From NCBI GenBank assembly GCA_001244265.2, contig CDLV01000007.1:2170001-2234000 (forward strand): a stretch of 64,000 bases of DNA, in the 5' to 3' direction. A model generated the notes under the pieces. That model was not told where the DNA came from. It saw nothing but the letters and a program-made list of their open reading frames with translations, and ran no database searches. Source of the stretch: Microbotryum violaceum (Eukaryota). Positions 2,487 to 55,715 of the stretch are shown here, piece after piece (the stretch's first letter is position 1; each line of letters opens with the position of its first letter). Position numbers and translations under genes: made by a program.

Positions 2487-5285
2487 TCAAATTTCCTCAT
2501 CCGTCTTGGCTCGCTTTGCCTCGGAAGTTGCGGACCGTTCATCGACCCCTGCAATCGCGGCGTCTGCGATGGACCGTTTTGGTGACCCGTGCACCGACTT
2601 CTCGTTATCCGTTTCGATCAACACGACCCTCGACGGCTTTCGGATCCATCCTTCGCCTTCAAGAGGTGGGGCCTCCCTCGTGGACCCCAGCCGCAGTGCC
2701 ATCTCCACCTCTACCCCCTCCATCTCCTTCTGTCCCTCCGCTGCCGTACCTTCTTTAGCCTTCTCCCCCACTTCCTGTGTCGGTTCAGGCGAGATCGGTT
2801 CCTCCGGTGCTCTATTCGCATCCTCAATAGCTTTGAGCAACAGATCAAAATCGCCTGCCTTGATCTTGTTGAAGAGGTTCAAATGCTGCAATGACGCGGC
2901 CCTCGTCGCTCGCCAATGCAATGAAGACAAACGTAATTCATGCTGTAGTGACATGAACCACACTCAGATTCAGTTCACCCTCCTGCAGATATTATATAAG
3001 TGTGATCAAGACCCACCTGCTCAACTTCCCCCTTCACCTCCTCCTTCTTGACTCTGTCCGTCGACTCGTCCTCCATCACCGCCTTCTTGCTTTTAATCAT
3101 CTTCTCACACCTCTGCCATTCAACCAACAAAGAATTGAAATCGTTCCTCGGCAAATCCGGTTCATAATCCTTCAACGTCGTCAGATTCCTTTCCCAAAGT
3201 CCGGAAAGTACGGGATTCCCGAGTTTGTAAGGGTAGTTCTTGGGTTTGCGGGAGAGGGTAACGAGTTTGGAGCGCGCGGTTTTCGAGACTTGGTCGATAG
3301 GGAGAGGGGAGAGTTCGAAGGGCTTGCAGGATTGCAGTTTCCAATTAATCTGTCAAAAGCTCGCTCAAAGATCATCAGCGCATGCTCATTCTTCACCTCG
3401 TGAAAGGATCATTCCTCGCGACTCACCCAATGTTGTTCCCTCTTGAGCATCACTTCGATCGCATCCCTGAACCTTCTCCCATGCTGCATCGCATCCAACT
3501 CCCTTACGGACCGCTCTCTCAAATCCCTCAGCCATTTCTCATGCTTCGCCCCCACTTCATGAGGTCCATACACGAGCGTGTTGGTCACGCCTTGGCTTAG
3601 GGTCCGTATTCGTTCTGGAGGGGTGAGGGATATGAGGAATTGGAAGAGGATGAGGAATTGGACGAGGATCTGGCGACGGAAAGTCGGGTCCGCGAGCTGT
3701 AACGAAGCAAGCGTTTCCCACGATCAGTATTCAACTTGGCAGATCTAGGGGCGTGCCTCGATGCTCGACTCACTTCGAGTTTGAGCAAATTCCGACTGGT
3801 CAAGAAGCGCGGGAAAAAGTAGTCCCCCAGCGCCTCTTCATCAACCAGACCATCCGTCACCATCGCCAAAGTCAGAGCCTTCCCATTCGCCACGACCTTG
3901 GTCGGATCCGTCGCAGCCCCAGTAAGATCTTTTTCCTTTTTGGTCTCGACGGCGAACATGTCGAGCGTCTTGGATAGCTGCAGTCGGAGCGTGTCGAGCG
4001 CGTCCGGTCCTCGCACAGGTGGAGAAGCGACGAGCGCGACTGGGTCGGTGAAGATCCTCTGGAGACTCCAGAAGATTGGGTAGAAAGAATCAACTTTGTC
4101 TGTGGGAGAGTACGCAAGGTACGGGCTGTGAATACATGGGTCGTCACTGGTCTTTATTCCACGCAGTCTGATCACCTTCTTTGACCTCCGCCGTCGGCTC
4201 CGTCTCCTTCTCCTGGTCCGCGGCCTTTTCATGATCTTGACCGTCCTCCTCTTGCTCTGCATCTGTTTTCTCCCCATTCTCTCTCCCCTCCTTCTTACCC
4301 TCTTCCTCTCCTTTCCTCCCCGCGTCCTCATCATACAATGTCTTCTTGCCTGTATTAAAGTTGCCCCTCAAATTGACTCCACTCTTCTCACTCAACGGAA
4401 AGACCGAACTGAGGAAGACGAGGATCCGACCGCTGAAAATGACGTGTTCTTGTTTGGAGCGGGGGAGGCGTCGTAGAAGTTCGTTGAGCATACGGAGGAT
4501 TATGAGGCCTTTGCCTTTGCCTGGGACCATGTCCTGGAGAGGAGATTAAAGGAAGGGATAAACCACAGCCTCACTGCCAATGGCTCACCTTCCTTCACGT
4601 GGCGCTGGGATTCATTGTACTGACCTTTGTCAATCGTTTAGACCTAGATTCGATATAGAGCCATGTGCTCTCGCATTGCGAGATGGTCTGCATGTCCAAC
4701 AGCGCCGAGATAGCATTCAGAGGGCTCACGACGTCCGTGTGGCCTGTTCGTGGGGGGGTTTCGGATGCAACGCTTAGTGTTTCATGTTTTTATTTTGATT
4801 ATCTGCTGGAATCTCACCTCTTTCCGAGAAGGTTTGCATCAAATCCAACAGGTCGAACTGCATCGCCGGCGAACCGACCACGGAGTCGACGCTTGACCAG
4901 GCCTGATGCACACAAAAAAAAAAATTACTCATCATCAGCTTGCCCCACCAACCTTCCAAAATGTTTCCAAGCACCCTACGCTTACCGTTTCATGCAATCT
5001 CTCCTCCAAGCTCCTCTCCAACGCTTGCCTTACCACCTCATTCCGTCTCCTCAGCCTCTCCCCATCTTGCGCCTTCTCATCCTCCGCAATCAATCCCTGC
5101 AGACCATCAACCACGCCATCGACCAAGCGACCCATCGTTTGCTCATCGATGGGATCGGTGATGGGATCGACCGTTCGGGTTGGTTCGTGGCGTATCCTTT
5201 CGAGGGTGGAGAGGGCCGAGCTGAGGTGCGATTCGAGCGAAGTTCGGAGGGAGGTGTAAATGGACATGATGGACATGATGGCCAT
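2487..5285 (-). CDS. THOC1: THO complex subunit 1 (THOC1/Hpr1-like), multi-exon
   Basis: Spliced exons carry LRMLNELLRRLPRSK..FSGRILVFLSSVFPLSEKSGVNLRGNFN, FYPIFWSLQRIF and YFFPRFLTSRNLLKLE, typical of THOC1. The start could be any of three tandem ATGs (5285/5276/5267). Confidence 0.85.
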
Positions 5286-31058: not shown

Positions 31059-31142
31059 TCACAAAAGAGGATAGGACAAACGTTTTGACTCATGTTCACA
31101 AAAGAGGATAGGACAAACGTTTTGTTTGACTCATCATGTTCA
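31059..31142. promoter_or_regulatory. Tandem duplication (29-bp exact core) carrying two TGACTCA (AP-1/Gcn4-type) sites upstream of the thiolase
   Basis: TCACAAAAGAGGATAGGACAAACGTTTTG at 31059-31087 and 31096-31124; TGACTCA at 31086-31092 and 31127-31133. Regulatory function is inferred. Confidence 0.55.
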
Positions 31143-33147: not shown

Positions 33148-34728
33148 GGTGGTTGTCGGGTGTGCGTGACAGCGGTCAGGGCCGTCAGGGGAGCGACCTT
33201 GCGAACCGTTCGCTGTCACAGCAGAACGCCAACACCCGGTACGGTCACGTGCTGCCTCACATCCTGCCCACCTTTTCAACCTCTGGGCAGTGCTCTAGCG
33301 CGCTGGCGCGATCTGGTGCAGTGCATAGTGCCCCACATGTACCACAGATAACCGGTAGCAACCATAGGTCTCGCAAGGAGCCATACTAAGGTCTACTTTA
33401 CGTGTAATGATACACGTCGGCTGTTTCGCTTGAGATTTGACCGTTAATGGTTAGGAGTCCGCCGGCGACTCCTCGATGATACCCGTCGGAGCCTGTCGAT
33501 CGGCTCGCGTAGTCGACGGCGTACTCTTCGCAATGACTCGAATATAGCGGAGCCGATAACAACGTAGGCGTAGCTGAAAAGTTCGTTGTGCAAGAACCTA
33601 GAAGTCTCATCGAAAGCTGGCATGGTAGCACGGTGGATGCCGCCACCCTTCAACTTGCGAGTCGATGATGCACGTCCTTACTACATTCACTCGCTTTGAC
33701 TACAGCGTGTTGACATCAGACTTGATGGCTTCGAACATCCTCTTGCACAAGGCAGCGAGTTGGAGATATTCCGCCAGCAGAAAAACAGTCTGGGGATTGA
33801 CAAGCCAAGCGTCGGAGACTCGATGAGGATGCTTTATTGGGTGTCGTCTTTTCTACGTCGCTTCCTCGCGAGGGTGACCGGTCATACTTGGAGCCGAATC
33901 CCATCTCGTCATTCTCAAAGAATCCACAACCTTCCGACCGCCTGTCGACCGGCGATTGCGGGCTGTACACAACCGACGTCGAGCCTTGAACCACGTCTCC
34001 GCAGATGAGGCAGTGACCCATTGACCCCCGTCGATCTCTAGGGCAAGGTCGTTCGCCCAACCAATCTGCGTAGCGTTTGTGATTTCTGAACACTTGGACA
34101 GGGGGCACAGCTTTAGCCCCCGAAGGTTCTACCTAACCTAAAGCGACGGTCATCCGACGGGCATACTACGCTATGCCCCCACGTTCGATTAGTACGCACA
34201 TGCATGCACTGGGTACTTCAATCGCTCGTGATCCGTCTGGACCCATTACGCGCAAAGCCGAACAAACGCTGCAGCGCAATGTAGAAACGAAGAACAAAGG
34301 TATCATTCCCTCCGCGAGCGGAATCTTCACGATCTGCTCGTCTTGTTGATAAGCGCTAGAACAACGCATGCGATGACGCAAGTAGGTGGGAGTGATAAAC
34401 GAGAGTAACATAATGAGAAAGTAGGGTCGTGAAGTCCGATTACCTTGGTATACATAAAGGCCTGATGAGCATGGGTGGAATTTTCGCATCCACCGCGGAA
34501 TGTGGAAGGGGTCAAACAAAGAAGAGGGTGACCGGGATATCGAAGGAATGGGTGGAGTACTGAAGATAGTTGGCAAACGAAATGTTTCGGACGAGTTGGG
34601 TTAGAGAAGTACTGAACAACAGTGGGATTTGCGAGGATGCAGACGAGGCGTAAACGAGCGAGGCGAAGGCGGGGTCAGGAACAGAGAATGCTTAGGCAAT
34701 GAGGAAATGAGCTGGCGAATGACACCCT

Positions 34729-36607
34729 TCACGGTAGCCAAACCTATGGGTACACACCGTCATGCCTCAGCTCTAGTCATACCATATTGTGAATGAAGAG
34801 TGTACTGACTTTGACGGACTGATCGACCGATCCCGTAGCAACAACGTTGACATACTGAATTGTTTCGGCTGACGCCTCGGAAGTCCCATTCTTGCCCATA
34901 CCATTTGTCGTCGACCCGTTCGTGGCTGTCGACGAACTCCCAGGCGCGGGTGCTCGTCCCCAAGCAAGACATGTGACAAAATGCGAGTGTGCCTCGAGTG
35001 TCTTACTGCATCTCCCTGTCACCAAGTCCCATGTGCGGATCGTCTTGTCGTCCGATGCTGAGAGTAGGAACTTGCCCAACGGATGGAACACCAGAGCCCG
35101 AACCCAGTTGTCGTCTGTAAGTAAACAGTTGCCAACGTCAGTTAGGGCGGAGGTGAATATCCTGCACCTGTTAGCAGAAGGACTTACGCCCGACAAAGGT
35201 CTTGAGGCATTGCCCACTCTGTGTGTCCCACAGCTTGATCGTCTTGTCCCTCGACCCTGTCGCCGCGAATGCCCCCACAGTCTTGGCATCAGCTCCCTTG
35301 GGTGACTACAGTGAAGGAGCAAGGCTATCAGCATCCTCGCGTTCCAGTTGAATTTAGGAAAGTGGATAGATGCGTACCGTCAATCCTGCCAGTTCGCGGA
35401 TTGCTGGATATGCGGCGATAGGTGCGAAGACGGCGACCTCAATTACATGGTCGTGCCCCCTCAGCTCCGTTTTGGTCTCGCCTGTTTGAGCATCCCATAT
35501 TCTCGAAGTCTGAAATCATGTTCCTCCATATTAATCAGTACCAATGATAGTTTTGGAGTAGACGGTATCATGAACTGACCTGGTCCACCGAACAACTGAT
35601 GAGCTGCCTCCCGTCCGAACTCGGCAACGCGCTCCGGACCCAATCTGCATGACCCGAGAAAGTCTTGACACAGAATCTGAGCGATGGAGGGATGAGGTAA
35701 TCAGCAAGAGCGTTGGTAGAGTGAATCTGATGCAAGGTCAATTACTCACCCACTCGCGACCTCCCACACCCGAATGGTCCGATCCCGACTCGCCGAGATG
35801 ATGAAGTCGTCGTTGGGCAAGAATCTCGCCGAGCTAATCGAATGATCATGGCCATACAACGTCTTGACGTTCTTCCAATCGTTGTTGGTGTCCCAGACCT
35901 TGAGCGTCAAATCGGACGAACACGAGACCAGGAAATTGCCTTTGGAATCGAAGTCGACGTCTTGCACGGCTTTGGTGTGGCCTTTAATGGTGCGTTCGAA
36001 ATCGCCCGTCTCCCAGTCCCAGACTTTGATAGTCGAGTCTTCGGATGCTGATACGACCTGACTGAACGAGGGGTGAAAGGCGACTCGTGTCACGGGCGAG
36101 CGATGTCCTGCAAGCGAATGCCGTGCTGGTGCTCGGGGCAGCCAATCGGGGGAGGACGCCGAGGGTCGCTTCGAGGGTGCTGTCGATAGCTCATCCTGGA
36201 GCTGTGCATTCCGTGTCTCGAGCTCCATGATCTATTGGCACAGACGTCCCCAAAAATGGTTGATTCAGCTTGGCTGTCCCTGTAGGTGTCGTGGTGGGTT
36301 TGGGCATCTCTGACCTTCTTCTGCAGTCGGATAACACTGGTCCACTTCTTCTCCAACAGCCCTGAATGTTTAGCCTTGGGATCGATCTCGAATGAAGCTA
36401 AGTTGGCTTCCTCCTTGAGGACGGCGAACGTTTGCGTGTATCCGATCGTATTGAGGTAGTCCAGCATGGACTTGTGGCTGCGAGGGGTCAAGGGGGACGG
36501 GGAGAAGCAAAGAAGGGGTTAGGACTTGGACCTGACGCGGCAAGGGTGTGAGAGAGTGATAAGACTTGCAGCTCATCCTTTTGCCGTTCACTGAGCACGC
36601 TGACCAT
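34729..36607 (-). CDS. LIS1: Dynein regulator LIS1/NudF/Pac1 (LisH + coiled coil + WD40), multi-exon
   Basis: [63 protein letters not shown] and WD repeats; ends [11 protein letters not shown]. Intron 1 is GC-AG (36569-36478). Confidence 0.95.
35541..35597 (-). repeat. Source copy of 57-nt inverted duplication (LIS1 exon end + 5' part of intron)
   Basis: Reverse complement equals 37218-37274 with one mismatch. Confidence 0.95.
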
Positions 36608-37217
36608 GGTGGGTGGGGAGGGAGGGCGAGGAGGATGGCGATGACGATGGCGATGACGATGACGATGAGGGCCGACCTGACGCGAAGTCGGGAGTTCGTC
36701 CACGAGATCACGTCTCTAGCGAGACGTGTATACACGGTGGTATGCTAATGTCTCCGAGATACACTGGTATTGACTATGATTCACCCAAACGGGCCGCTAG
36801 TTGATGACCGAAGCCGACGACGAGCGAATGATCACGACCGCGCCCACGATGGGTCGTATGGAGACGGGCAAGGGGCGGCAGGCGGCAGGCAGGCGGCAGG
36901 GCAGCACGTGAAATCAGACGTCAAGGGCAGACGAGCAGGTTGATGGACAATCGCTAACGCAGAAAGAGTTGATAGATCTCTTCTCGAGACGGAGGCAATG
37001 TCGACCAGGCGAGAGCGGCGATTGTTGGACTAGATTCGATGGTGAGCTTAGGAGCTCAACGCTCAACGCTCGCGAGTGTCCGTGCGACCGACGCGACGGG
37101 CGACACCCGTAAATGAGATTAATGAGAGACGCAGTGATGGACGCAGTCGCGACGCCTGTGGTTTCGAACCGTTCGGTAAAGTACGCGCAAACTTTCTGCC
37201 CGGGCGGGCAAGCTTCA

Positions 37218-37274
37218 AGTTGTTCAGTGGACCAGGTCAGTTCATGATACCGTCTACTCCAAAACTATCATTGG
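37218..37274 (+). repeat. Inverted copy of LIS1 exon/intron junction in the LIS1-thymidylate kinase intergenic region
   Basis: AGTTGTTCAGTGGACCAG|GTCAGTTCATGATACCGTCTACTCCAAAACTATCATTGG is 56/57 identical to the LIS1 sense strand. Confidence 0.95.
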
Positions 37275-37478
37275 CGAACAACAACAAGAAAATCGCAACT
37301 ATAATATTTTAGCTTTCTTGTTCGGACGAATTAGCAACCGCTCTCGACCTTCGGCTCTCGTGCCCAGTCGCGCCGGCGCGTCCACAAGCGCCGTTTCGAG
37401 CTCAGCCATCCTTCCCACCGCGCCAACACGGCTTCACAGCTCCTCATCCGTTCCGTCCCGCGTCTGTTTGGTCGAGCA

Positions 37479-38476
37479 ATGTCGACCTCAGCATTGATGG
37501 CATCCAACTCGACGGGCAAGAGGGGCGCCTTTATCGTCTTTGAAGGGCTCGACCGGTCAGGCAAGACGACCCAGCTCCAAAAGCTCGTGGACAGGTTGCA
37601 ACAGGATGGTGTCAATGCCGCGGCTTGTCGTTTCCCAGGTGTGTTATACCCCAATATGAGCTACAGATTTATAGGTGGAGAATGACAGCTTAGGCGCGAC
37701 GCATCACACCTCATACTCATCTGACCCCCACCTGCGATCGCCCCCCACCCAGACCGGACCACCTCAACGGGCAAGATGATCGACTCGTATCTCGGATCAA
37801 AGTCGGACCTCGACGATCGAGCGATCCACCTTCTCTTCTCTGTCAATCGCTGGGAAAGAGCGTGAGTCATTGCAGTTATGTGGTCTTCTCAAAGTGTCGG
37901 CAGAATGCGAAGCTGATAAAGTCCGAATACAATCTGCCTGCTTCCGACCTCTTCCTCACAACTCAAATCTCGCTACACGAATATAAGAAAGGGTATATTG
38001 TCCGAGTTGGAACAAGGAAAGACCGTTGTATGCGATCGTTATGCCTTCTCTGGGATCGCCTTCAGCGCTGTCAAGGTCGGTGCTGGGAAGCTACAGACCT
38101 CGGTTTCGCACCCATGCTAATTTTCAGGGCCACCTTCCATGAATACCCAAAGGGTCTTTCATACGAGTGGTGTCTCTCCCCCGACGTCGGTCTCCCCGCT
38201 CCCGACCTTGTCCTCTTCTTCAACGTATCTGCCAAAGTTCAAGAACAGCGCGGTGGATTCGGCCAAGAACGCTACGAAACGACCGAGATCCAAAAGAACG
38301 TTCGAGCGATGTTTGAGAAGATTGGGAAAGATGTAGGGCATAGTTGGGAGGTCGTGGAAGGTGATGGGGGGTTGGAGGAGGTGGGAGAGGAGGTTTTGGA
38401 GAGGGCGAGGAGAGTTATTAAGGGAGAACTGGGACCGGTCAGGGAGTTGTGGAAGGATCGGTCGGGTAAGGCGTAG
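37479..38476 (+). CDS. CDC8: Thymidylate kinase (dTMP kinase), 4 exons
   Basis: RGAFIVFEGLDRSGKTTQ (P-loop), RFP|DRTT..IHLLFSVNRWE, VCDRYAFSGIAFS, PDVGLPAPDLVLF, RGGFGQERYE. Confidence 0.95.
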
Positions 38477-38642
38477 CCTGCAAACGAAAATCTTAGTCCC
38501 AAATGACCCTTGCGCCACATCTCGAAGGCGTGATCGTTGACAACTCGGATCCAGGAGGGACTGCTCACTTTCTCTCGTCGTTTGTGTCCGATCACGTGTG
38601 CGCATCCTATAGTTACAACATCATTCACTACACTTGCTTCGC

Positions 38643-39681
38643 TCATGACTGCTTGGTATCATTCACTTCGCTTGCCGCGTCCACCCTGACTGGTCGATTT
38701 TTGAGCTTCTCCAACTCGGCAATGACCGTACTCGCGGCCTGTCCGTTCGAACTCCAAGCGAATGCATGATCGGACCTCTCCAGCGACCTCGCCATATCCC
38801 CTGTGTGGACGTGCGATATCCAAGCTGGGCTCGGATTAACCAAGAAACCTCCTCGGATGCCTATCTCCACGATCTGAAACAAATGAAGCACCCTGATCAG
38901 CCCTTCAGCTGTTTCCGCCGAATGAAAGGGTTGACCATCTGCTTACCTGTTCAACGATATTTTCCAATTTTTCCTCTCTCAACAACCCCTCATTCCTCTC
39001 CTTTCGTTCCTTCTCCAGATCTAACGATAATTGCGCCAGCCGTTCCTCATGTGCCTCCAATTGGTCCTGGACTTGATCTCGCCGTTTCCCCTCCGCTCGT
39101 CTCGATCGCCAGTTCTCGGCCAGGACTGTGGTGCAGGCGCATTTGCTTCAGTCCCAATCATTCAAAAATATTCTTCAGTGTAATACTAGAAAGGCAGCTT
39201 ACTTATACTTGCTGCGAAAGCAAAGAGGAAGGTCTCGGAGATAAAGTTGGCGCCGGCGTCGATCGCTCTAGCGTCATTCAGCGGTCGAACCACCACCGGA
39301 TGCGTTTCTCCCAACAGAGAGACTCGCACTGTTACGATATCGAACGAGGACAGTCAGCCATCGAGTTCGCCAAATGTACGAGAGCCCGGGAAGATGACGA
39401 ACTCCTCATTTCCGACCGATGCAAGAACTGTGCGAACGAGATGGTCATTTCTCGGAACCGTTCATGTTCCTGTGTTATTGAAATGTCCCAGTATCGCATT
39501 TGAAGAAGGAGATATCAATTAGGCGGCACCGTTGAATGACGTGGTCAAGCTCCACTAGCACGTTCCTCGTCGACGACGACCCGGGGAGCGGTTTCCTCAC
39601 CTTGGCTTGATTCTTCAATCGATTTGCTATAGGCTTGCTCAAAGTTCTGAGGAATAGCGAAGCGATCTTGACGCTCGCCAT
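38643..39681 (-). CDS. OPA3: OPA3-like mitochondrial protein, multi-exon
   Basis: VKIASLFLRTLSKPIANRLKNQAK|EHERFR..HRSEMRMRVSLLG..RPLNDARAIDAGANFISETFLF, followed by a coiled coil. Confidence 0.9.
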
Positions 39682-46641: not shown

Positions 46642-46918
46642 CCAGTGGGAACCCGTTACATTAACGGGAAGATGAAATTTAAATAGCAGGATAATTAAAC
46701 GGCCTGAATGATTTCAGCGCAAAGGTTACAACACCCAATACGAAGTACAGCAAAGAAACAAAATCCTTTCATCTTACGTTCATCGCCGAAACAGCCTGCA
46801 TGTCGCTTGTTGCCGGACTTGGCTTCAAACACTCGTGCAATGAGATCCGATGATTCGGAGTCGCGCGTCATCGTGATGAGAAGCGGAGGCTTTCCATGAT
46901 TGACAACGCATGCCATCG
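46642..46918. mobile_element. Small non-coding dispersed repeat, copy A (terminal hairpin; possibly non-autonomous Helitron-like)
   Basis: Collinear blocks shared with 50221-50239 and 55445-55715, including 23 identical nt at 46777-46799 / 55534-55556. Hairpin CCCGTTA-CAT-TAACGGG at 46652-46668; on the minus strand CTGG ends 10 nt later and is followed by T. Confidence 0.7.
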
Positions 46919-48639: not shown

Positions 48640-48712
48640 GGGTGTGCTCATCGAGGAGGCCCCGGGGAGTGAGAAATGTAGCGAAAGAGGAAGATCCGGA
48701 AGGCGAGTGTCG

Positions 48713-50105
48713 TGCAATGTAATGCAATGTAATGCAATGTTAATGCAATGTTAATGCAATGTTAATGCAATGTTGTTAATGTAATGTAATAATGTAATGC
48801 AATTGTTAATGCAATGTAATGCAATTGTTAATGCAATGTAATGCAATGTTAATTCAATGTAATGCAATGTTAATGCAATGTAATGCAATGTTAATGCAAT
48901 GTTTAATGCAATGTAATGTTAATGCAATGTAATGCAATGTTAATGCAATGTTAATGCAATGTTAATGCAATGTTAATGCAATGTAATGCAATGCAATGTT
49001 AATGCAATGCAATTGTTAATGCAATGTAATGCAATTGTTAATGCAATGTAATGCAATGTTAATGCAATGTAATGCAATGTTAATGCAATGTAATGCAATG
49101 CAATGTCAATGCAATGCAATGCAGTGTTAATGCAATGTAATGCAACGTTAATGCAATGTAATGCAATGTTAATGCAATGTAATGCAATGCTAATGCAATG
49201 TATGTTTAATGCAATGTTAATGCAATGTTTAATGCAATGTAATGCAATGTTTAATGCAATGTCAATGTTAATGCAATGTTTAATGCAATGCAATGTAATG
49301 CAATGTTAATGCAATGTTTAATGCAATGTAATGTTAATGCATGCAATACAATGTAATGCAATGTTAATGCAATGTAATGCAATGTTAATGCAATGTAATG
49401 CAATGTAATGCAATGTAATGCAATGTAATGCAATGTAATGCAATGTAATGCAATGTAATGCAATGTAATGCAATGTAATGCAATGTAATGCAATGTAATG
49501 CAATGTAATGCAATGTAATGCAATGTAATGCAATGTAATGCAATGTAATGCAATGTAATGCAATGTAATGCAATGTAATGCAATGTAATGCAATGTAATG
49601 CAATGTAATGCAATGTAATGCAATGTAATGCAATGTAATGCAATGTAATGCAATGTAATGCAATGTAATGCAATGTAATGCAATGTCAATGCAATTGTAA
49701 TGCAATGTCAATGCAATGTAATGCAATGTCAATGCAATGTAATGCAATGTTAATGCAATGTAAATGCAATGTCAATGCAATGTAATGCAATGTTAATGCA
49801 ATGTAATGCAATGTTAAATCAATGTAATGCAATGTTAATGCAATCAATGTAATGCCATGTTAATGCAATGTAATGCAATGTTAATGCAATCAATGTAATG
49901 CAATGTTAATGCAATGTTAATGCAATGTTAATGCAACGTTAATGCAATGTTAATGCAATGTTAATGCAATGTAATGCAATGTAATGCAATGTAATGCAAT
50001 GTAATGCAATGTAATGCAATGTAATGCAATGTAATGCAATGTAATGCAATGTAATGCAATGTAATGCAATGTAATGCAATGTAATGCAATGAATGTAATG
50101 CAATG
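48713..50105. repeat. ~1.4 kb tandem satellite (AATGCAATGT)n with 11-mer variant AATGCAATGTT
   Basis: Pure 10-mer blocks at ~49386-49686 (~30 units) and ~49962-50091 (~13 units), flanked by degenerate 10/11-mers. Confidence 0.98.
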
Positions 50106-55441: not shown

Positions 55442-55715
55442 CGGATGAAATCCAAATCGCATGAGAATCGAAGAACAGTCTACATAATTTCAGCAGAGGT
55501 AAACAAACACGAACAAAAAACGCAAATATTTTCCGTTCATCGCCGAAACAGCCTGCCCATTGAAACATTCGTGCAATGAGATCTGGACGGTGGCATGCTT
55601 TAAGTGGTCGTTCGGCCACAGTGCAGTTTTGATTTCCGGCCGTTCGCGAATGGAGTCGCGCGTCACCGTGATGAACAGCACGGAGGCTTTCCAGATTTGA
55701 CAACGCACGCCAGCG
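55442..55715. mobile_element. Dispersed repeat copy B, right part
   Basis: GATGAAATCCAAATCGCATGAGAAT ~ GATGAAATTTAAATAGCAGGATAAT (copy A), plus shared blocks CGTTCATCGCCGAAACAGCCTGC, TCGTGCAATGAGATC, GGAGTCGCGCGTCA, CGGAGGCTTTCCA and TTGACAACGCA. Confidence 0.8.

Follow-up and report, generated by a model that had tools for sequence, protein, structure and literature searches.

A short inverted copy of the LIS1 exon 4/intron 4 junction in the LIS1/thymidylate kinase intergenic region, probably the scar of a templated insertion

Introner-like elements and duplicated introns consist of a whole intron with both splice sites, and are present in several copies. The sequence described here, a 57-nt inverted copy of an exon/intron junction of a LIS1 gene that is located between LIS1 and a neighboring thymidylate kinase gene, shares with them the presence of intron sequence and of a 5' splice site at a second place. 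However, it carries only 39 of the 70 intron bases together with 18 exon bases, and has neither a branch site nor an acceptor; with two copies in the window (the whole stretch of DNA that was analyzed, 64,000 nucleotides in length), it is not a mobile intron.

Other parallels come from templated mutations. Inverted templated insertions have been described that are primed at microhomology and tolerate a mismatched 3'-most base, with Pol zeta implicated in yeast (MMB-TI; Osia et al. 2021, PMC8421209). As in those events, the LIS1 copy is a short inverted copy of a nearby template, with a candidate 8-nt microhomology at the switch-in point and possibly a mismatched 3'-most base. In the definition used in that study, however, the template lies within 100 bp or less, whereas in the present case it is 1.6 kb away (the arms are 1620 nt apart); moreover, the LIS1 copy is not a somatic or cancer event but a germline event that has been fixed in a fungus-like genome, and its ancestral allele was not seen.

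Templated inverted insertions at yeast DSBs have been attributed to synthesis by Pol delta at one of the two ends, the second being sealed by end joining (Yu et al. 2024, PMC11724301). The LIS1 copy would share with them the extension of one end from microhomology, the capture of the other by end joining, and a product that is inverted with respect to its template, but the local foldback events of that study are mostly of 5-34 bp and derived from break-adjacent sequence, as compared to approximately 48 nt from a distance of 1.6 kb here. Short-range template-switch mutations at quasi-palindromes, for which a role in yeast promoter evolution has been described (PMC7954356, PMC13100816, PMC8604942), likewise place an inverted copy within or beside a small, imperfect palindrome of a promoter region. 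In those events, the opposite arm or strand is copied within tens of bases and an existing repeat is homogenised, whereas the LIS1 case involves a foreign piece of a gene body.

We regard the LIS1 copy as a new and neat instance of a mutation type that is already known, and not as a new kind of system. The reading that we consider probable is that of a lineage-specific, fixed scar, namely a short inverted templated insertion for which LIS1 DNA located 1.6 kb away served as the template and which was primed by microhomology (MMBIR-like). If this is right, the locus offers a clean natural example of an inverted templated insertion in the kilobase range, with a legible priming junction and fixed in a wild lineage, and indicates that repair errors can seed promoters with splice-site-bearing sequence and perfect inverted repeats. 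Its value for studies of template switching, promoter birth and intron birth would be modest; only if the copy were transcribed together with LIS1 would it represent an unusual form of self-antisense splicing control.

A repeat search identified a single inverted pair of at least 28 nt in the whole 64-kb window, with 57-nt arms at 35541-35597 and 37218-37274 that are complementary at 56 of 57 positions (98%) and spaced by 1620 nt. The 32-nt core of the 57-mer occurs exactly twice in the window, even when up to three mismatches are allowed, and none of 100 dinucleotide-preserving shuffles yielded two matches. As in templated insertions, the sequence is thus an inverted copy of a template found elsewhere on the same chromosome, and it is unique in the window. 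In the donor arm (35541-35597, minus strand), 18 nt from the end of LIS1 exon 4 (encoding S C S V D Q) are followed by 39 nt from the start of intron 4, so that the arm spans the 5' splice site CAG/GTCAGT. From the LIS1 ATG (36607), the copy (37218-37274, plus strand) is reached after 611 nt in the upstream direction; a further 205 nt separate its other end from the thymidylate kinase ATG (37479). An earlier note on this DNA had reported a 56/57 inverted recurrence at 37218-37274, composed of 18 exon and 39 intron nucleotides and located ~610 and ~205 nt from the two start codons; the recurrence was reproduced by our search, the distances correspond to those measured here, and the composition agrees with the derived gene model, in which intron 4 spans 35579-35510.

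The arms differ only at 35589, where the coding strand has G (codon TCG), against A at 37226 (codon TCA), 9 nt from the left end of the copy. When 100-nt flanks were aligned locally, homology was seen to end sharply on both sides of the arms, and the flanks were mostly random-like, with the exception of a weak, gapped resemblance on the left side (GGCA/GC/TCA) that covers approximately 11 nt at most. A decayed larger duplication was considered and is ruled out by these unrelated flanks and sharp borders.

The LIS1/PAC1 gene (34729-36607, minus strand), whose exon coordinates were obtained from reading frames and splice signals, consists of eight exons (36607-36570, 36477-36315, 36231-35750, 35676-35580, 35509-35378, 35305-35188, 35114-34810 and 34743-34729). 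Intron 1 (36478-36569) is of the GC-AG type, and the spliced product is 450 amino acids long and ends in ...VKVWLP. Pfam recognizes a LisH_PAC1 domain in exon 2 (E 3.2e-12) and WD40 in exon 3 (E 2.1e-34, three repeats), that is, the N-terminal PAC1-type LisH followed by a WD40 propeller that characterizes LIS1/PAC1/NudF. Exon 4 ends at 35580 with the codons AGT TGT TCG GTG GAC CAG, and is followed by the 70-nt intron 4 (35510-35579, minus strand; GTCAGT...CAG), whose branch-site motif TACTGAT (35540-35534) is found directly past the copied part of the intron and therefore outside of the copy. In RNA from a related species (run X18), a 1757-nt spliced contig with exons approximately 96% identical to those of the window (in exon 3, 20 of 482 nt differ) omits six of the seven LIS1 introns at the derived coordinates, including intron 4 (35510-35579) and intron 1 (36478-36569). 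The thymidylate kinase gene (37479-38476, plus strand) is divergent from LIS1 and has a first intron at about 37634-37747, with a splice joint in X18; its first and last exons match Pfam Thymidylate_kin (E 5e-7 and 1e-7), with scores of 30.1 and 31.9 bits that exceed the gathering cut-off of 27. We note that the X18 RNA provides no cover at 37020-37423 and that its kinase contig starts at 37479, from which no conclusion is drawn.

In order to compare the locus to those of relatives, we employed 37 LIS1-like metagenome loci with 56-86% protein identity (86% for the closest one) and DNA identities of 64-76% over longer exon alignments, with short blocks reaching 87%. The end of exon 4 was examined in 15 of these loci, where the peptide SCSxD(Q/H) is conserved. 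A phase-0 GT/GC...AG intron of 52-80 nt is present at the exact exon 4 border in 13 of the 15; one of the remaining loci has an intron but its alignment ended early, and the other is intronless. The introns found at this border are unrelated to one another in sequence, and loci L001, L010 and L012 likewise use TCG for the serine codon in which the arms diverge. Since the exon end and the intron position are conserved in such distant relatives, the LIS1 arm is the donor and the intergenic arm is the copy.

Contigs from four runs, among 24 listed runs that stem from several studies and carry four organism labels, were compared to the window. The contigs total 21-31 Mb per run which, together with the short introns with CTRAY branch motifs and the PAC1-type LisH, suggests that the organism is a fungus. 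All compared DNA runs carry the copy, which was seen in independent DNA contigs of X13, X15 and X16. In X13 (organism B, DNA), three contigs (35000-35579, 35559-37256 and 37236-38000) bridge all four arm junctions. The contigs of X15 (organism C, DNA) cover 35000-35570, 35559-36171, 36577-37256 and 37245-37733; they have 39 letters inside the arm at two junctions, and are marginal at the other two, with 30 letters against a bridging rule of 31. The unitigs shared by the two arms are of raised depth: in X13, the depth is 47.3 for the 39-nt unitig 37227-37265, precisely the stretch common to both arms in this run, versus ~28 nearby, and in X15 the 48-nt unitig 35541-35588 has a depth of 8.5 versus about 5-6, so that the shared core is ~1.5-1.7 times as deep as its flanks. 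In addition, runs X7, X8, X9 and X12 of sample S7, from a third study (P3), contain 1.00, 1.00, 1.00 and 0.97 of the sampled words, respectively, and none was flagged as a possible source.

Over 3001 nt, X13 departs from the window at four listed single letters and by one deletion of 4 nt. Its donor arm carries a further SNP (35549 A>G) that leaves the copy unchanged and reduces the complementarity of the arms to 55/57. Because the DNA runs are at least 99.8% identical to the window, the four organism labels correspond to one shallow lineage. The copy is thus real and fixed within this shallow lineage despite the four labels, which implies nothing about its age.

The mismatch at 37226 divides the copy into a left end (37218-37226, plus strand), formed by AGTTGTTC followed by A, and a perfect 48-mer (37227-37274). 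In the left end, the eight nucleotides of AGTTGTTC match the donor and are followed by the sole mismatch; we propose that this segment is native microhomology that acted as a primer, and that the 48-nt core, which includes the shared unitigs of raised depth, would be the newly synthesised, templated part. The right flank, CGAACAAC (37275-37282, plus strand), corresponds perfectly, as a reverse complement, to the left end as it reads in the donor (GTTGTTCG); against the copy's own letters, 7 of 8 positions are complementary. Together, 37275-37282 and 37219-37225 form a small quasi-palindrome around the insert, and in a single-strand DNA fold of 37195-37300 the flank stem closes the insert. When 200,000 random window sites were used as mock right flanks in a Monte Carlo calculation, a flank complement of at least 7 nt at offsets 0-2 was obtained with a P of about 0.0007. 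The return junction, CATTGG/CGAAC, displays no visible microhomology. The sole mismatch is located at the putative priming junction, but a G-to-A change that took place later at a CpG would explain it equally well.

In the proposed mechanism, the ancestral target would have been ...CAAGTTGTTC(A/G)CGAACAACAAC..., a 7-8-bp quasi-palindrome (GTTGTTC..GAACAAC); in terms of priming, the uninterrupted site would have read ...CAAGTTGTTC and then CGAACAACAACAAG..., directly or within about 2 nt, with the 48-mer absent. A break or a stalled fork inside the quasi-palindrome would free a top-strand 3' end, ...CAAGTTGTTC(A), which thus ends in AGTTGTTC(A), and this end could anneal by its 8-nt microhomology to the LIS1 plus strand at 35590-35597. 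It would subsequently be extended by ~48 nt, past the exon 4/intron 4 border and as far as the last base ahead of the branch site, and be rejoined to the original right side, CGAACAAC... Such an event would be classed as microhomology-mediated template switching (MMBIR/FoSTeS-type) or synthesis-dependent end joining. As reconstructed here, the priming path would reproduce the observed orientation and borders exactly. Since no pre-insertion allele has been seen, the true extent of the insertion (48 or 57 nt), whether AGTTGTTCA is native and whether bases were lost at the target site are matters of inference. A mirror model, in which the right-hand bottom strand acts as the primer (GTTGTTCG-3' on LIS1 CGAACAAC), was rejected, as it would generate a direct and not an inverted copy.

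Of the three options put forward in the earlier note, a neutral templated repair insertion fits best, in view of the sharp borders, the perfect 48-nt core, the mismatch at the putative priming junction, the 8-nt microhomology and the non-random complementary right flank, as well as the absence of the repeat from 25 informative related loci and the existence of one lineage with an uncompensated arm SNP. The note's deduction that the template was DNA or pre-mRNA and not mRNA was also right, because intron sequence is included. The same scar could have arisen by the capture of a free LIS1 DNA fragment, or by repair synthesis on unspliced LIS1 pre-mRNA, but we consider such origins unlikely. Yeast DSBs do take in pieces of distant fragile loci (PMC11724301), a pre-mRNA template is formally possible given that the fragment contains intron sequence, and it is a curious fact that the copy happens to end beside the branch site. 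However, simple capture leaves the complementarity between left end and right flank (P about 0.0007) unexplained, and a pre-mRNA template would need a bottom strand ...GTTGTTCG-3' to prime next to CAUUGG/UACUGA, where there appears to be no complementarity. As far as contigs can tell, the chance that an assembly chimera or artefact explains the copy is negligible: the arm junctions are crossed by contigs of two other studies (every one in X13, whereas a pair of those in X15 have only 30 letters inside the arm), the depth of the shared core is raised, and the S7 runs contain 0.97-1.00 of the words. It is also extremely improbable that recombination between the arms switches the orientation of the 1.6-kb segment carrying LIS1 exons 1-4 and the promoter. 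One 195-nt contig of X16 does join 35637-35541 (minus strand) to 37275-37372 (plus strand), which is the junction expected after inversion, but the depth of X16 is only 2.5-4, its competing branches are uncovered and its contigs stop at 35527 and 37238; moreover, X13 and X15 have the reference arrangement only, and LIS1 would be split by the inversion. We read this joint between opposite strands as a low-depth chimera, in which a k=31 graph was linearised through the 48-nt exact repeat.

The remaining readings assign a role to the copy. In one of them, which the earlier note had raised as a nascent 5'-UTR intron of the thymidylate kinase gene, the copy would be a working 5' splice site (or a U1 binding site) on the plus strand. 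Indeed, this strand has an intact CAG/GTCAGT, and AG dinucleotides follow at the positions that the note had given, one ending at 37312 behind a T-rich run and the other at 37334. A spliceosomal intron would be expected to have a CTRAY motif 20-40 nt before the AG in addition to its 5' splice site, but the LIS1 branch site TACTGAT lies immediately past the copied stretch and there is no CTRAY anywhere in 37236-37400, as opposed to five of the seven LIS1 introns, which carry CTRAY 22-41 nt before their 3' end. In addition, a leader that included the copy would contain an upstream ATG at 37243, and a TATAAT-like element at ~37303, downstream of the copy, suggests that the kinase start may also lie downstream. 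With the branch site uncopied and CTRAY absent after the copy, this option is weakened, and a new kinase intron is highly improbable. It is quite unlikely that the copy serves as a regulatory antisense or forms a long-range duplex, in which a putative minus-strand LIS1 leader or promoter RNA carrying the copy would pair with the exon 4/intron 4 donor, in cis or in trans, and mask the splice site or feed RNAi. If both arms were present in one RNA, the computed duplex would be of 57 bp, with one G-U pair and about -108 kcal/mol, and the RNA contigs of the related species (X18) form a tiled series from the LIS1 CDS as far upstream as about 36978, so that the leader may be long, of at least ~370 nt. 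Nevertheless, LIS1 transcripts would have to start beyond 37274, while minus-strand RNA support ends at about 36990; the repeat is absent from the 25 informative related loci, the X13 donor-arm SNP introduces a C-A mismatch with no compensation, and 34500-38700 gave no matches when searched against Rfam at E up to 1. We consider it very unlikely that the scar was co-opted, with a putative minus-strand RNA from beyond 37274 (starting, for example, at the TATAAT-like element at ~37303) forming a duplex with the LIS1 exon 4/intron 4 donor. If this were the case, one repair accident would have given rise to a self-targeting splice-site mask or dsRNA trigger, and LIS1 splicing would be coupled to the activity of the promoter shared by LIS1 and the thymidylate kinase gene.

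Most likely, then, the copy has no function of its own; it is located in the shared promoter region, has no branch site and drifts independently of its donor. It is probably neutral, as the single SNP, the lack of conservation in distant relatives and the missing intron signals weakly suggest, and the X13 SNP is a small sign that the complementarity of the arms is not maintained. Among the 37 LIS1-like loci, 25 are informative, in that they include at least 1.1 kb upstream of exon 3 as well as the exon 4/intron 4 junction, and in none of the 37 does an inverted repeat of at least 20 nt connect the LIS1 body with sequence upstream of it; the repeat is thus not a conserved feature. The pre-insertion allele was not recovered among the 37 loci, where the intergenic region is too diverged for alignment. 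In tblastn searches with E up to 1e-3, a thymidylate kinase gene adjoining LIS1 was found in none of the 37 loci, and the divergent gene pair is thus itself lineage-specific. The only inverted matches present in these loci were one of 45 nt between the two ends of contig L001 and others of 20-22 nt located far upstream in L007 and L008.

One contig of the DNA run X16 joins 35541-35637, which spans the LIS1 donor segment on its exon 4 side (35541-35597, the end of exon 4 and the start of intron 4), to 37275-37372, the right flank of the inverted copy at 37218-37274, with the two parts on opposite strands. The most probable source of this joint is a graph chimera, formed at low depth through the 48-nt exact repeat, the perfect core common to the donor and its copy; an inversion allele is the less likely one. 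Next to the copy, 14 nt to its left, a 4-nt deletion at 37201-37204 removes one unit of a CGGG CGGG duplication; it is carried by the DNA runs X13 and X16 and absent from X15, and is an ordinary repeat-unit polymorphism.

LIS1 intron 1 (36478-36569, minus strand, 92 nt) is of the GC-AG type (GCAAGT...CAG), and this is confirmed by a spliced contig of X18, an RNA run of a relative, in which the 36477/36570 joint shows CT..GC ends when read on the plus strand. In a related metagenome locus, L007, the GC donor lies at intron 4, not at intron 1. Introns 4 (35510-35579) and 7 (34744-34809) both start with GTCAGT, and the codons preceding this hexamer are similar in the two (GAC CAG| versus GTC AAA|). 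A motif search of the introns found no CTRAY branch-site motif in introns 2 and 7.

X18 and X13 carry the same organism label. When compared over 35000-38000, X13 nevertheless differs from the window by approximately 0.15% and X18 by approximately 4% in the LIS1 exons. Several closely related species or strain groups, at least two, are apparently united under this label.

The LIS1 leader contains a run of GATGAC/GATGGC hexamers (36616-36716), where reads pile up in all four runs, at depths of 157-1144 versus 5-180 nearby, and where the same four runs show numerous loose contig ends. Pile-up and loose ends together indicate that similar repeats occur at many other genomic places, breaking contigs.

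A repeat search of the window identified a large minisatellite at 48692-50010, with TAATGCAATG-like units of 10-11 nt and a perfectly regular 10-nt array within it (approximately 49386-49685), as well as a perfect 29-nt direct repeat (31059-31087 and 31096-31124; spacing given as 37 nt). Two short blocks, of 29 nt (93% identity) and 28 nt (89%), recur in the same order between 46771-46884 and 55528-55679, approximately 8.8 kb apart, and may be the mark of a paralogous gene pair. In L001, a LIS1-like metagenome contig, the ends (1-45 and 4374-4418) form a perfect 45-nt inverted repeat that probably arose as an artefact when this contig was assembled.
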